A DNA stretch of 13,174 nt from a virus (lineage: Duplodnaviria; Heunggongvirae; Uroviricota; Caudoviricetes). The notes under the pieces were generated by a model that worked only from the letters and a program-made list of their open reading frames with translations, ran no database searches and was not told where the DNA came from. Position numbers and translations under genes: made by a program. Below, one piece after another: positions 4,397 through 9,140 of the stretch (position 1 is its first letter; each line of letters begins with the position of its first letter). The stretch is from the IMG/VR virus record IMGVR_UViG_2703718823_000001, positions 1 to 13,174 of that record; one strand, written 5' to 3'.

Positions 4397-4586
4397 ACTG
4401 CAGGCGCTGCGTCAGGCGCGCCTTGATTTATTAACCGGTAAACGGGTGGTGTCTGTCCAGAAAGATGGTCGCAGAATTGAATATACGGCGGCCTCTCTGG
4501 ATGAGCTTAACCGGGCGATCAATGATGCTGAGTTGGTACTGGGGACAACCCGCCGTCGCCGTCGTCCGCTGGGAGTGAGGTTATGA
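4380..4586 (+). CDS. W: Head-tail joining / head completion protein, lambda gpW-like (68 aa)
   Basis: Product contains ...LLTGKRVVSVQKDGRRIEYTAASLDEL...RRRRRPLG, same length as and similar to lambda gpW as recalled. GAGGAG lies 3 nt upstream of the ATG. Overlaps the end of A and the start of B (ATGA). Confidence 0.9.
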   Translation: MVTVAELQALRQARLDLLTGKRVVSVQKDGRRIEYTAASLDELNRAINDAELVLGTTRRRRRPLGVRL

Positions 4587-6175
4587 AACGAAAGCCTGTC
4601 CTGATTGATGTGAACGGCGTTCCGCTTCGGGAGAGCCTCAGCTACAACGGGGGCGGTGCAGGATTTGGCGGGCAAATGGCAGAGTGGTTGCCACCCTCGC
4701 AGAGTGCCGATGCGGCCCTGCTGCCCGCGTTGCGTCTGGGGAATGCCCGTGCAGATGATCTGGTGCGCAATAACGGAATAGCGGCCAATGCGGTGGCCCT
4801 GCATAAGGATCACATTGTCGGGCATATGTTTCTGATTAGCTACCGTCCGAACTGGCGCTGGCTGGGGATGCGGGAGACCGCGGCAAAAAGTTTTGTCGAT
4901 GAGGTGGAGGCGGCCTGGTCAGAATACGCAGAAGGGATGTTTGGTGAGATCGACGTGGAAGGGAAACGCACGTTTACGGAATTTATCCGTGAAGGTGTGG
5001 GCGTTCATGCGTTTAACGGCGAAATCTTTGTGCAGCCGGTCTGGGATACGGAGAGCACGCAACTGTTTCGTACGCGTTTTAAAGCCGTGAGTCCGAAACG
5101 GGTGGACACGCCAGGACACGGTATCGGGAACCGTTTTCTGCGGGCCGGGGTGGAGGTTGATCGATATGGCCGTGCCGTTGCGTACCATATCTGTGAGGAT
5201 GATTTTCCTCGCTCCGGGAGTGGACGATGGGAACGGATCCCGCGTGAACTTCCCACCGGGCGTCCGGCCATGCTGCATATTTTCGAGCCGGTGGAGGACG
5301 GGCAGACCCGTGGGGCCAACCAGTTTTACAGCGTCATGGAACGGCTGAAGATGCTCGATTCCCTGCAGGCAACACAGCTTCAGTCGGCCATTGTTAAAGC
5401 CATGTATGCAGCGACGATTGAAAGTGAACTTGATACCGAAAAGGCCTTTGAATATATCGCCGGTGCGCCGCAGGGGCAGAAGGATAATCCGCTTATTAAT
5501 ATTCTGGATAAGTTCTCCACCTGGTATGACACGAATAGCGTGACGCTGGGCGGTGTCAAAATTCCGCACCTTTTCCCTGGTGATGATCTGAAACTTCAGA
5601 CCGCGCAGGATTCAGACAATGGATTTTCGGCGCTTGAACAGGCGCTGCTGCGGTATATCGCTGCCGGTCTTGGCGTTTCCTACGAACAGTTGTCCCGTGA
5701 TTACTCGAAGGTCAGTTACTCAAGTGCCCGCGCCTCCGCCAATGAGTCGTGGCGCTATTTTATGGGGCGGCGAAAATTTATTGCGGCCCGGCTGGCCACG
5801 CAGATGTTTTCCTGCTGGCTGGAAGAGGCACTTCTTCGGGGGATTATTCGTCCGCCACGGGCACGTTTTGATTTTTATCAGGCGCGTTCAGCCTGGTCAC
5901 GGGCTGAGTGGATTGGTGCCGGAAGAATGGCCATTGACGGGCTCAAGGAGGTTCAGGAATCGGTGATGCGTATTGATTCCGGACTGAGCACGTATGAGAA
6001 AGAGCTGGCGCTGATGGGCGAGGATTATCAGGACATTTTCCGCCAGCAGGTCAGGGAATCTGCAGAGCGGGAAAAAGCCGGACTCTCACGTCCGGTGTGG
6101 ATAGCGCAGGCGTATCAGCAGCAGATAGCGGAGAGTCGCAGGCCGGAAGAGGAGACAACACCACGTGAGACGTAA
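4583..6175 (+). CDS. B: Portal protein, lambda gpB-like
   Basis: 530-aa product in the position and of the size of lambda gpB (about 533 aa), between W and C, with start overlapping the W stop. Confidence 0.93.
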   Translation: MKRKPVLIDVNGVPLRESLSYNGGGAGFGGQMAEWLPPSQSADAALLPALRLGNARADDLVRNNGIAANAVALHKDHIVGHMFLISYRPNWRWLGMRETAAKSFVDEVEAAWSEYAEGMFGEIDVEGKRTFTEFIREGVGVHAFNGEIFVQPVWDTESTQLFRTRFKAVSPKRVDTPGHGIGNRFLRAGVEVDRYGRAVAYHICEDDFPRSGSGRWERIPRELPTGRPAMLHIFEPVEDGQTRGANQFYSVMERLKMLDSLQATQLQSAIVKAMYAATIESELDTEKAFEYIAGAPQGQKDNPLINILDKFSTWYDTNSVTLGGVKIPHLFPGDDLKLQTAQDSDNGFSALEQALLRYIAAGLGVSYEQLSRDYSKVSYSSARASANESWRYFMGRRKFIAARLATQMFSCWLEEALLRGIIRPPRARFDFYQARSAWSRAEWIGAGRMAIDGLKEVQESVMRIDSGLSTYEKELALMGEDYQDIFRQQVRESAEREKAGLSRPVWIAQAYQQQIAESRRPEEETTPRET

Positions 6176-7670
6176 TCTTTCACACATTATTGCAGCAGCA
6201 TTCAATGAACCGCTGCTTCTGGAGCCCGCCTATGCGCGGGTTTTCTTTTGCGCGCTCGGGCGCGAGATGGGGGCAGCAAGTCTTTCGGTACCACAACAGC
6301 AGGTACAGCTTGATGCACCCGGAATGCTGGCTGAAACGGACGAGTACATGGCCGGAGGTAAACGACCGGCCCGTGTTTACCGGGTGGTGAACGGTATTGC
6401 TGTACTGCCGGTCACAGGCACGCTGGTGCACCGGCTGGGGGGTATGCGGCCATTTTCCGGAATGACAGGCTATGACGGCATTGTCGCCTGTCTTCAGCAG
6501 GCAATGGCGGATAGCCAGGTGCGGGGTGTACTGCTGGACATTGACAGTCCGGGCGGGCAGGCCGCCGGTGCGTTTGACTGTGCTGACATGATTTACCGCC
6601 TCCGTCAGCAGAAGCCGGTCTGGGCACTGTGCAATGACACGGCCTGTTCTGCAGCCATGCTGCTGGCGTCGGCCTGCTCCCGACGGCTGGTTACCCAGAC
6701 ATCCCGTATCGGCTCCATTGGCGTGATGATGAGCCATGTCAGCTATGCCGGTCATCTGGCGCAGGCCGGTGTGGATATCACGCTGATTTACTCAGGGGCG
6801 CACAAGGTGGATGGCAATCAGTTTGAAGCGTTGCCGGAAGAGGTTCGCCAGGACATGCAGCAGCGGATTGATGCGGCGCGCCGGATGTTTGCCGAAAAAG
6901 TGGCGATGTATACCGGTCTGTCTGTTGATGCAGTCACGGGAACAGAGGCCGCCGTTTTTGAAGGTCAGTCCGGCATTGAGGCCGGGCTGGCGGATGAATT
7001 AATCAATGCGTCGGATGCCATCAGCGTGATGGCTGCGGCGCTGAACACACATGATACAGGAGGCACTATGCCGCAATTAACTGCAACGGAAGCTGCCGCG
7101 CAGGAGAACCAGCGAGTGATGGGGATCCTGGCGTGTCAGGAAGCGAAAGGACGTGAACACCTTGCCACGATGCTGGCAGGACAACAGGGCATGAGCGTTG
7201 AACAGGCCCGGGCGATTCTGACCGCGGCAGCACCACAGCAGCCGGTGGCATCCACGCAGAGTGAAGCCGATCGCATTATGGCGTGTGAAGAAGCTAAAGG
7301 TCGTGAACAACTGGCGGCAACGCTGGCGGCGATGCCGGATATGACGGTGGAAAAAGCCCGCCCGATCCTGGCGGCTTCACCGCAGGCGGATGCCGGACCC
7401 TCACTCCGTGATCAGATTATGGCTCTGGATGAGGCAAAAGGGGCTGAGGCGCAGGCTGAAAAACTGGCGGCGTTTCCCGGAATGACGGTGGAGGCTGCCC
7501 GCGACATTCTGTCCTCATCGCCGGATAAAGCAGAACCGGTTTCTGCATCCACAACCGCCATGTTTGAACGCATCATGGCGAACCATTCACCGGCAGCCGT
7601 GCAGGGTGGCGTGTCACAGACGTCGGCAGACGGTGATGCGGACGTGAAAATGCTCATGGCCATGCCATGA
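6165..7670 (+). CDS. C: Prohead protease / scaffold protein, lambda gpC-like (S49/ClpP-type serine peptidase domain plus C-terminal scaffold region)
   Basis: GTG start overlapping the B stop. N-terminal region (...AFNEPLLLEPAYARVFFCAL..., GVLLDIDSPGGQAAGAFDCADMI, VWALCNDTACSAAMLLASACSRRLVTQTSRIGSIGVMMSH, ITLIYSGAHKVDGN) matches lambda gpC as recalled. The C-terminal third is a repetitive helical region. Confidence 0.9.
   Translation: MRRNLSHIIAAAFNEPLLLEPAYARVFFCALGREMGAASLSVPQQQVQLDAPGMLAETDEYMAGGKRPARVYRVVNGIAVLPVTGTLVHRLGGMRPFSGMTGYDGIVACLQQAMADSQVRGVLLDIDSPGGQAAGAFDCADMIYRLRQQKPVWALCNDTACSAAMLLASACSRRLVTQTSRIGSIGVMMSHVSYAGHLAQAGVDITLIYSGAHKVDGNQFEALPEEVRQDMQQRIDAARRMFAEKVAMYTGLSVDAVTGTEAAVFEGQSGIEAGLADELINASDAISVMAAALNTHDTGGTMPQLTATEAAAQENQRVMGILACQEAKGREHLATMLAGQQGMSVEQARAILTAAAPQQPVASTQSEADRIMACEEAKGREQLAATLAAMPDMTVEKARPILAASPQADAGPSLRDQIMALDEAKGAEAQAEKLAAFPGMTVEAARDILSSSPDKAEPVSASTTAMFERIMANHSPAAVQGGVSQTSADGDADVKMLMAMP
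7068..7670 (+). CDS. Nu3: Nested in-frame scaffold protein (Nu3-like), translated from an internal start within C
   Basis: In-frame ATG at 7068 preceded by GGAGG (7059-7063, 4-nt spacer). It encodes 200 aa sharing the C terminus of C. This mirrors the C/Nu3 nested arrangement of lambda. Confidence 0.6.
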   Translation: MPQLTATEAAAQENQRVMGILACQEAKGREHLATMLAGQQGMSVEQARAILTAAAPQQPVASTQSEADRIMACEEAKGREQLAATLAAMPDMTVEKARPILAASPQADAGPSLRDQIMALDEAKGAEAQAEKLAAFPGMTVEAARDILSSSPDKAEPVSASTTAMFERIMANHSPAAVQGGVSQTSADGDADVKMLMAMP

Positions 7671-7706: not shown

Positions 7707-8054
7707 ATGGTGACGAAAACCATCACTGAACAACGTGCGGAAGTACGTATTTTTGCCGGTAATGATCCGGCTCATACCGCCACAGGCAGCAGCGGGATTT
7801 CTCAGGCAACACCGGCTCTGACGCCCCTGATGCTGGATGAAGCCAGCGGGAAACTGGTGGTCTGGGATGGACAGAAAGCCGGTAGTGCGGCTGGCATACT
7901 GGTACTGCCGCTTGAAGGCACAGAGACGGTGCTGACCTATTACAAGTCGGGGACCTTTGCGACGGAGGCAATCCGCTGGCCTGACAGTGTGGATGAACAC
8001 AAAAAGGCAAATGCCTTTGCCGGTACAGCCCTGAGTCACGCGGCTCTGCCGTAA
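7707..8054 (+). CDS. D: Head decoration / capsid stabilisation protein, lambda gpD-like
   Basis: Product contains ...NDPAHTATG...TPLMLD...KLVVWDG...AGILV...YYKSGTF...AFAGTA, co-linear with lambda gpD as recalled. Confidence 0.9.
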   Translation: MVTKTITEQRAEVRIFAGNDPAHTATGSSGISQATPALTPLMLDEASGKLVVWDGQKAGSAAGILVLPLEGTETVLTYYKSGTFATEAIRWPDSVDEHKKANAFAGTALSHAALP

Positions 8055-8111: not shown

Positions 8112-9140
8112 ATGGGATTGTTTACGACCCGCCAGTTACTCGGTTATACCGAACAAAAAGTGAAATTCCGTGCGCTGTTTCTGGAGCTGTTTTTCCGCCG
8201 TACGGTGAATTTCCACACCGAAGAGGTGATGCTGGACAAAATTACCGGAAAAACGCCGGTGGCAGCCTATGTCTCCCCGGTTGTTGAAGGAAAAGTGCTT
8301 CGCCATCGCGGTGGTGAAACCCGCGTGTTACGTCCGGGCTACGTCAAGCCCAAACACGAATTTAATTACCAGCAGGCGGTTGAGCGCCTTCCTGGTGAAG
8401 ATCCGGCTCAGCTGAATGACCCGGCCTACCGTCGTCTGCGTATCATTACCGATAACCTCAAACAGGAAGAGCACGCCATTGTCCAGGTGGAAGAAATGCA
8501 GGCGGTGAATGCCGTGCTGTATGGCAAATACACCATGGAAGGGGATCAGTTTGATACTGTCGAGGTGGATTTCGGGCGCTCTGAAGGAAATAACATTGAG
8601 CAGGCTGACGGTAAAAAATGGTCTGAGCAGGACCGTGATACGTTTGATCCGACGCATGATATTGACCTCTACTGCGATCAGGCCAGCGGCCTTGTGAATA
8701 TCGCCATTATGGACGGTACGGTCTGGCGTCTGCTGAATGGCTTTAAGCTGTTCCGCGAAAAACTGGATACCCGTCGCGGCTCAAATTCACAACTCGAAAC
8801 GGCAGTGAAAGACCTGGGGGCGGTGGTGTCCTTCAAGGGGTATTACGGCGATCTGGCCATTGTGGTGGCGAAAACGTCTTATGTGGCAGAGGACGGTACC
8901 GAAAAACGTTATCTGCCGGAGGGCACACTGGTCCTGGGGAATACGGCAGCAGAGGGCATTCGTTGCTATGGTGCCATTCAGGATGCGCAGGCGTTGTCCG
9001 AAGGTGTGGTGGCCTCTTCCCGTTATCCGAAACACTGGCTGACTGTGGGCGATCCGGCCCGTGAATTCACCATGACGCAGTCCGCTCCGCTGATGGTGCT
9101 GCCGGATCCGGATGAGTTTGTGGTGGTACAGGTGAAATAA
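8112..9140 (+). CDS. E: Major capsid protein, lambda gpE-like
   Basis: 342-aa product (lambda gpE is about 341 aa) with long co-linear matches (PGYVKPKHE, DPAYRRLRII, VEEMQAVNAVLYGKYTMEGD, KLDTRRGSNSQLETAVKDLG, GDPAREFTMTQSAPLMVLPDPDEF). Confidence 0.95.
   Translation: MGLFTTRQLLGYTEQKVKFRALFLELFFRRTVNFHTEEVMLDKITGKTPVAAYVSPVVEGKVLRHRGGETRVLRPGYVKPKHEFNYQQAVERLPGEDPAQLNDPAYRRLRIITDNLKQEEHAIVQVEEMQAVNAVLYGKYTMEGDQFDTVEVDFGRSEGNNIEQADGKKWSEQDRDTFDPTHDIDLYCDQASGLVNIAIMDGTVWRLLNGFKLFREKLDTRRGSNSQLETAVKDLGAVVSFKGYYGDLAIVVAKTSYVAEDGTEKRYLPEGTLVLGNTAAEGIRCYGAIQDAQALSEGVVASSRYPKHWLTVGDPAREFTMTQSAPLMVLPDPDEFVVVQVK

Follow-up and report, generated by a model that had tools for sequence, protein, structure and literature searches.

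Three tandem copies of a predicted three-helix module, the Tri boxes of phage 21, in the scaffold part of a lambdoid prohead protease/scaffold gene

Results

The window, by which we mean the whole stretch of 13,174 nucleotides that was analysed (IMG/VR record IMGVR_UViG_2703718823_000001), carries a late operon of lambdoid type. First come the end of an endolysin gene, an Rz-like spanin gene, the small and large terminase genes, a head-tail adaptor gene and the portal gene (4583-6175); these are followed in order by a prohead protease/scaffold gene of the S49 type (6165-7670, plus strand), the head decoration gene (7707-8054), the major capsid gene (8112-9140), FI and FII. The protease/scaffold gene is 1506 nt long, encodes 501 aa (translation 6165-7667) and sits between the portal gene, whose end its GTG start overlaps, and the decoration and major capsid genes, an order (portal, C/Nu3, decoration, major capsid) that the window shares with lambda. 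The best matches to the whole window were Escherichia phages of the PhiR12 series (98-98.7%), and phage 21 matched it at 88.6% over 78% of its length. The nucleotide identity of the protease/scaffold gene was 99.8% to Escherichia phage PhiR12_1 and 95.3%, without indels, to gene 5 of phage 21. It is the same gene as that of phage 21, with equal length, three repeats, a putative ribosome binding site and a nested start, but the window holds another allele, which is nearest to PhiR12-type E. coli phages and prophages (98-99.8%) and differs from phage 21 by a mosaic patch that lies in the latter half of the third repeat (26 mismatches in 100 nt).

The 501-aa protein matched PHROG 53, 'head maturation protease' (E=1.8e-225), and is 54% identical in amino acids to lambda gpC. 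A peptidase S49 domain lies within its N-terminal 300 aa (aa 146-293; 6600-7043, plus strand; Pfam PF01343, E=1.6e-35, 122.8 bits against a cut-off of 24.9), and B. subtilis SppA (3rst) also aligned to the protein (E=2.4e-16). Ser162 aligned to Ser166 of lambda gpC and to the serine in the 'AASGG' motif of SppA, which we take to be the catalytic residues. The likeness to lambda gpC/gpNu3 covers the S49 domain, the C-terminal scaffold part and a tail motif: the BLASTP match to lambda C extended through the first repeat (E=8e-142 overall), where identity was 60%, and the third repeat and the tail aligned as a separate match (E=6e-08), showing that the C-terminal part is homologous to lambda Nu3. 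The initial annotation had placed the repeats in the Nu3-like scaffold part of a lambda-C-like S49 protease/scaffold gene, and the phage 21 annotation, the Pfam match and the lambda alignment all agree with this placement.

A nested, in-frame scaffold gene of 200 aa is predicted to start at an ATG at 7068 (7068-7670, plus strand) by one-to-one alignment with phage 21, whose gene 6 is the Nu3 analogue. A Shine-Dalgarno sequence, AGGAGG (7058-7063, plus strand), precedes this ATG as its putative ribosome binding site and is annotated as such in GenBank M81255.1 and OL657228.1. A Shine-Dalgarno sequence followed by an ATG was found at the equivalent place in seven lineages, including Trabulsiella, Providencia, Buttiauxella, Serratia, Enterobacter and lambda. 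The RefSeq start of lambda nu3 is Met239, inside the protease domain, whereas gene 6 of phage 21 starts just after that domain. The predicted start in the window is Met302 of the 501-aa protein, and Met309 is the other candidate start in lambda. The 200-aa scaffold would consist of a short linker, three modules and a tail. The frame would be read twice, giving the protease/scaffold protein and a separate 200-aa scaffold from the predicted internal ATG, and both proteins would therefore carry the same three modules.

The three modules lie on the plus strand at 7104-7238 (copy 1, R1; aa 314-358, ENQRVMGILACQEAKGREHLATMLAGQQGMSVEQARAILTAAAPQ), 7254-7385 (copy 2, R2; aa 364-407, TQSEADRIMACEEAKGREQLAATLAAMPDMTVEKARPILAASPQ) and 7395-7526 (copy 3, R3; aa 411-454, GPSLRDQIMALDEAKGAEAQAEKLAAFPGMTVEAARDILSSSPD). 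BLASTP of the scaffold part against itself returned only the identity match, and the copies were therefore compared segment by segment with Smith-Waterman alignments and shuffles. The scores were 106 for R1-R2 (z=17.2), 74 for R1-R3 (z=12.8) and 109 for R2-R3 (z=17.2), and none of 2000 shuffles reached the score of any pair. Furthermore, an HMM of the unit found three full-length copies in the 501-aa protein, and PHROGs 8399, 8940 and 17040 each matched the scaffold part in three stretches. The three consecutive protein repeats of the initial annotation are therefore real, and the peptides that it quoted occur verbatim in the translation. Its claim that the copies have diverged in DNA also holds, as Tandem Repeats Finder reported no repeat in the DNA and an exact-seed repeat finder gave only one pair, R1/R2, with 70% identity over 97 nt.

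These repeats are already in the public record. The entry for the head gene operon of phage 21 (M81255.1, 'Bacteriophage 21 head gene operon') contains three repeat_region features within gene 6, named 'Tri1 box', 'Tri box' and 'Tri3 box' and annotated 'function unknown; putative'. Since the gene in the window aligns one-to-one with gene 5 of phage 21, these features (5542-5645, 5682-5792 and 5823-5936 in M81255.1) map to 7135-7238, 7275-7385 and 7416-7529 of the window, that is, onto copies 1, 2 and 3. We regard it as virtually certain that the three repeats are the Tri boxes and that they are tandem copies of a mini-domain of about 45 aa with three helices. Literature searches on phage 21 head genes, Tri boxes and Nu3 domain mapping returned nothing useful.

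Across 68 distinct units the signature of the module is ExxR[IV]xGILxCxEAKGRExLAxxLAxxPGM[TS]VExAxxILAAAP, in which an Ile, two Ala, a Gly and a Leu are invariant or nearly so and the polar positions (E, R, the E-A-K-G-R-E of the EAKGRE loop and a further E) are also conserved. The pattern beginning with [RQ][IV]M in the initial annotation captured the repeats themselves, but its register is shifted by three residues for copy 1, the first helix of which is longer by three residues, so that its GIL aligns with the RIM and QIM of copies 2 and 3. In the window, copy 3 reads EAKGAE and has lost the conserved Arg, and it may therefore not be equal to the other two copies.

AlphaFold2 modelled the whole 200-aa scaffold poorly (pLDDT 59), as helical units joined by low-confidence linkers. 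A single unit (copy 2), modelled with 21 aligned units, reached a pLDDT of 93.9 and a pTM of 0.72, with helices predicted at residues 5-11, 19-26 and 33-42 of the 45-aa unit. Both models are consistent with the helical nature that had been attributed to the repeats. Foldseek searches against the PDB gave no match for the 200-aa scaffold model and no match with E <= 0.001 for the single-module model, and no Pfam or NCBIfam model reached its cut-off on the scaffold part. Against BFVD, the top three matches were S49 prohead proteases, from Salmonella phage 37, Synechococcus virus S-ESS1 and an uncultured siphovirus (TM 0.80-0.83, rmsd 1.1-1.2 Å over 41 residues), with E-values that were not significant given the short query. 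Profile matches among PDB sequences were designed tandem-repeat proteins only; they share a generic helix-capping motif, G[MV][ST]VE.A..IL, and were judged non-homologous.

The C-terminal tail (aa 455-501; 7527-7667, plus strand) ends in KMLMAMP and contains the motif FERIM (7563-7577, plus strand). This is where the initial annotation had seen a fourth, partial copy (ERIMANHS), but the shuffles gave no significant repeat there (z <= 1.7). Of 57 distinct tails, 39 have a motif of the form [LF][DE]x[LIFMA]M at 9-13 aa downstream of the last module, and single-copy proteins are among them, including lambda (LDRLM) and relatives in Pseudomonas and Marinobacter. The motif is therefore an ancestral tail element rather than the decayed remnant of a fourth copy. 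In copies 2 and 3 the leaders (ADRIM and RDQIM) look like this motif, a resemblance in sequence which suggests that the end-points of the duplications may have lain within it. The tails are otherwise lineage-specific and follow the clade of the head genes.

Lambda gpC/Nu3 has a single module (ENSRIMGILNCEEAHGREEQARVLAETPGMTVKTARRILAAAPQ), of which copy 1 of the window is the ortholog. Comparing lambda was the check proposed for the repeat count, and as lambda has one copy against three here, the count is not equal in all lambda-like scaffolds. The lambda module also differs in the linker before it, which is of low complexity, about 45 aa long and rich in Ser, Thr, Ala and Gln, while the linker in the window is of about 17 aa. 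A scan of GTDB with one genome per species gave 80 loci, and all 69 complete S49 homologs among them, scored with the iterated unit HMM, contained at least one module. One copy was found in 63 proteins, from Enterobacter to Vibrio, Pseudomonas, Marinobacter and Zooshikella, two copies in one protein (Buttiauxella ferragutiae) and three copies in five (E. coli, Shigella flexneri, E. albertii, Trabulsiella guamensis and Providencia alcalifaciens). When 1.84 billion cluster representatives were searched with a profile built from 21 units, there were 1527 matches at E <= 0.001; the best-scoring 150 of these, a choice biased towards multi-copy proteins, comprised 131 proteins with one copy, 15 with two and 4 with three. 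These data show that one copy, as in lambda, is the common state, and that, in the scaffold part of lambda-family S49 prohead protease/scaffold proteins, the module is the sole element to be conserved throughout. The domain is widespread and usually present once; only a small minority of forms have more than one copy.

Within E. coli, 1867 of 5426 complete genomes contained the 603-nt three-copy scaffold part with a coverage of >= 80%, and it was exactly 603 nt long in 38 of the 40 E. coli matches listed. The scan of IMG/VR gave 449 relatives, at 93-100% identity only, all with three copies. A search of 5.8 billion proteins returned mostly gene fragments, and among these were a partial E. coli protein with four copies (P0026), a fragment that lacks exactly copy 2 (P0021) and another with an in-register partial deletion (P0013). 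A further natural variant is the allele in NZ_AP022003.1, which has a deletion of 57 nt.

The initial annotation had considered the duplication to be old, and a unit-by-unit comparison supports this. Copy 1 was nearest to copy 1 of other genera, copy 2 to copy 2 of the Salmonella-type and Providencia relatives and copy 3 to copy 3 of the Salmonella-type and Trabulsiella relatives. This pairing by position across genera indicates that the triplication predates the split of these phage lineages. P0026, in contrast, points to a recent amplification, as its copies 2-4 share 80-85% identity with each other, and in the two-copy proteins P0127 and P0103, which belong to distant lineages, the own copies are most alike each other, indicating independent duplications. 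All these data show an old amplification to three copies in the phage 21 lineage, the window included, in which all three copies have been kept, while unequal recombination between copies still yields two-copy, four-copy and partly deleted variants.

Selection on the regions of the gene was analysed with 69 distinct alleles of the 501-aa gene. The dN/dS values were 0.175 for R1, 0.182 for R2 and 0.212 for R3, compared with 0.118 for the S49 domain, 0.39 for the linker before R1, 1.18 for the R1-R2 linker (8 codons) and 0.14 for the R2-R3 linker (7 codons). Purifying selection, with a dN/dS of about 0.2, thus maintains all three copies.

A tuning of capsid size by copy number had also been proposed. 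The downstream major capsid protein is homologous and of about 341 aa for scaffolds with one, two and three modules alike, and lambda and phage 21 both form T=7 heads of similar size. Nothing in our data supports a link between copy number and capsid size. Capsid protein identity to the window was at least 81% for relatives with three copies, 67% with two and at most 68% with one; copy number tracks the phylogeny of the head module.

Discussion

The repeat described here has long been annotated, and the prophage head gene that contains it is very common in E. coli, where about one third of complete genomes carry it; in this sense the finding is ordinary and mostly of housekeeping value. Its new content is modest: a conserved domain with three predicted helices that has no Pfam or NCBIfam family and is single in nearly all lambda-like S49 protease/scaffold proteins. 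The new comparative point is that this domain was amplified in one enterobacterial lineage and reaches two to four copies in a few lineages.

The best overall explanation of the repeats, to which we give a probability of about one half, is that a three-helix domain acting as a binding unit has been triplicated. Each module would be a protein-protein contact unit on the inner face of the capsid protein, on another scaffold chain or on both, and these contacts would bring scaffold and protease together into the procapsid, where the protease would later degrade the scaffold and itself. In this regard, purified gpNu3 of lambda is reportedly partly helical and partly disordered, is said to be in a weak monomer-dimer equilibrium and is said to drive gpE into procapsid-like shells, properties that fit a small folded module on disordered linkers. 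The oligomerisation role suggested for the repeats in the initial annotation is plausible. Lambda Nu3 has been described as a scaffold that is needed for portal incorporation and is thought to be degraded by C, and its listed interactions are Nu3-E, Nu3-Nu3, Nu3-C and Nu3-B (PMC3224144). For the specific proposal that the putative protein-binding unit draws scaffold and protease into the procapsid, we consider the chances to be close to even or slightly below. With three modules on flexible linkers, the scaffold would be multivalent and its avidity could exceed that given by the single module of lambda.

The broader reading is more tentative, and we lean slightly against it. The module of about 45 aa may be an unnamed domain without a solved structure that serves as the universal interaction unit of S49-protease-linked scaffolds, with its copy number, from one to four, setting the valency. 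If this were true, phage 21-type heads would be built with a multivalent scaffold and lambda would use a monovalent scaffold with a long linker. The naturally occurring variants with one, two, three and four copies could be used to test binding by the lambda-type scaffold core.

Other explanations of the extra copies have to be weighed against this binding role. Copies 2 and 3 could be a structured spacer whose only effect is on the distance or bulk that separates the protease domain from the tail, with the tail as the true capsid-binding element and the copies in effect replacing the linker of lambda. The longer linker before the lambda module is in line with this, as are the lineage-specific tails that track the head-gene clade, and the tail could be the real capsid-binding element. 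However, copies 2 and 3 retain the polar signature of the module and not helicity alone, at positions conserved across genera, and their dN/dS is lower than the values for the R1-R2 linker and the linker that precedes R1, although not lower than that of the R2-R3 linker. We therefore consider a mere spacer to be unlikely. Somewhat less probable is a role of the module as a cassette for protease docking or degradation, which the S49 domain would recognise to clear scaffold and protease, so that more copies would mean faster or fuller removal. The module accompanies S49 prohead proteases even when capsid protein identity falls to 29-43%, it appears in the predicted structures of S49 proteins from a cyanophage and from Salmonella phage 37, and both a C-Nu3 interaction and degradation are listed in the literature (PMC3224144). 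This co-occurrence is nevertheless trivial given that the two parts are fused or encoded in a nested arrangement.

The copy number could also be functionally meaningless, a neutral by-product of unequal crossing-over, as the natural one- to four-copy variants and the in-register partial deletions might suggest. The purifying selection on all three copies, the three-copy length kept in 1867 E. coli genomes and the positional orthology across genera argue against this, making neutrality improbable. Finally, the repeats might act in the DNA, as regulatory sites or as sites to which proteins bind, for example the CII sites that OL657228.1 annotates, and the region does contain two matches to TTGYN6TTGY (minus strand, 7073-7086 and 7307-7320). 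As the window holds 2 such matches against 2.5 expected by chance, the motif is at chance frequency and we discarded the CII-site reading of the region; the repeats are, furthermore, conserved as protein and not as DNA, so that a DNA-level element has a negligible chance of being the explanation.

The proposed binding role recalls the scaffolding protein of P22, the C-terminal helix-turn-helix of which is its coat-binding domain, and the likeness is by analogy only: in both cases a small helical unit of a scaffold could contact the coat via conserved charged residues. The module differs from the P22 domain in having three helices, in lying about 47 aa from the C-terminus and in being repeated, and neither Foldseek against the PDB nor the PDB profile search gave a sequence or fold match between the two.

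Lastly, three antisense open reading frames overlie the repeat region (7066-7251, 7077-7310 and 7412-7663), and we assume them to be by-products of the Ala-rich coding frame.

Length variation and mosaicism of the scaffold

The three-copy scaffold, built from modules of ~45 aa at nt 7104-7238, 7254-7385 and 7395-7526, was found to have natural in-frame length variants. A complete E. coli genome carries an allele that is 57 nt shorter (H76; NZ_AP022003.1, 3009071-3009616), two of the homologous scaffold proteins (P0013 and P0014) show a 19-aa in-register deletion across the end of copy 2, and the allele encoding another homolog, P0021, lacks exactly copy 2. Our comparisons also revealed a mosaic patch at window 7465-7564, which runs from the last part of copy 3 into the first part of the tail (7527-7667). 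Mismatches to phage 21 cluster in this patch (26 per 100 nt, compared to 0-9 per 100 nt in the rest of the gene) and dS among alleles is raised in copy 3 (0.35, compared to ~0.1 in most of the remaining gene), which points to a recombinational exchange of these two adjoining segments.

Translation starts

The protease/scaffold gene (6165-7670, plus strand) begins with a GTG, and its first 11 nt (6165-6175) overlap the 3' end of the portal gene (4583-6175); as in phage 21, this arrangement would fit translational coupling. Further downstream, each of the seven lineages checked carries a Shine-Dalgarno sequence and an in-frame ATG immediately 3' of the S49 domain (7058-7070 in the window). In lambda (homolog locus L095, 913-936), the sequence 'tcaggagggcga ATG' follows the S49 domain and gives MTKETQ at gpC Met309, a candidate start. 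In contrast to this Shine-Dalgarno-preceded ATG, the RefSeq annotation places the lambda nu3 start at Met239 (5132), a codon that corresponds to ATT (Ile) in the window.

Lambda gene C in unrelated assemblies

Loci L096-L102 of the GTDB scan, found in assemblies of unrelated organisms (Chromatium weissei, Kitasatospora papulosa, Shewanella canadensis, two Pseudomonas, Oceanobacillus profundus and Leeuwenhoekiella nanhaiensis), had no mismatches to lambda gene C over 1320 positions (0/1320). Where contig names gave the coverage of the contigs carrying it, this was ~1x in three assemblies and 9.6x in one Pseudomonas. These copies are almost certainly lambda DNA contamination of the genome assemblies, and L095, L120, L121 and L130 are probably cases of the same kind.

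Motifs and antisense ORFs over the repeats

Two matches to TTGYN6TTGY, the motif that phage 21 record OL657228.1 labels as 'CII binding sites', lie on the minus strand of the window (7073-7086 and 7307-7320); we rejected these matches as CII sites because their number in the window is at chance level (2 observed, 2.5 expected) and they therefore carry no signal. Three minus-strand ORFs of 61-83 aa (7066-7251, 7077-7310 and 7412-7663) also lie opposite the repeat region; they probably arise incidentally from a coding frame that is both Ala-rich and GC-rich.
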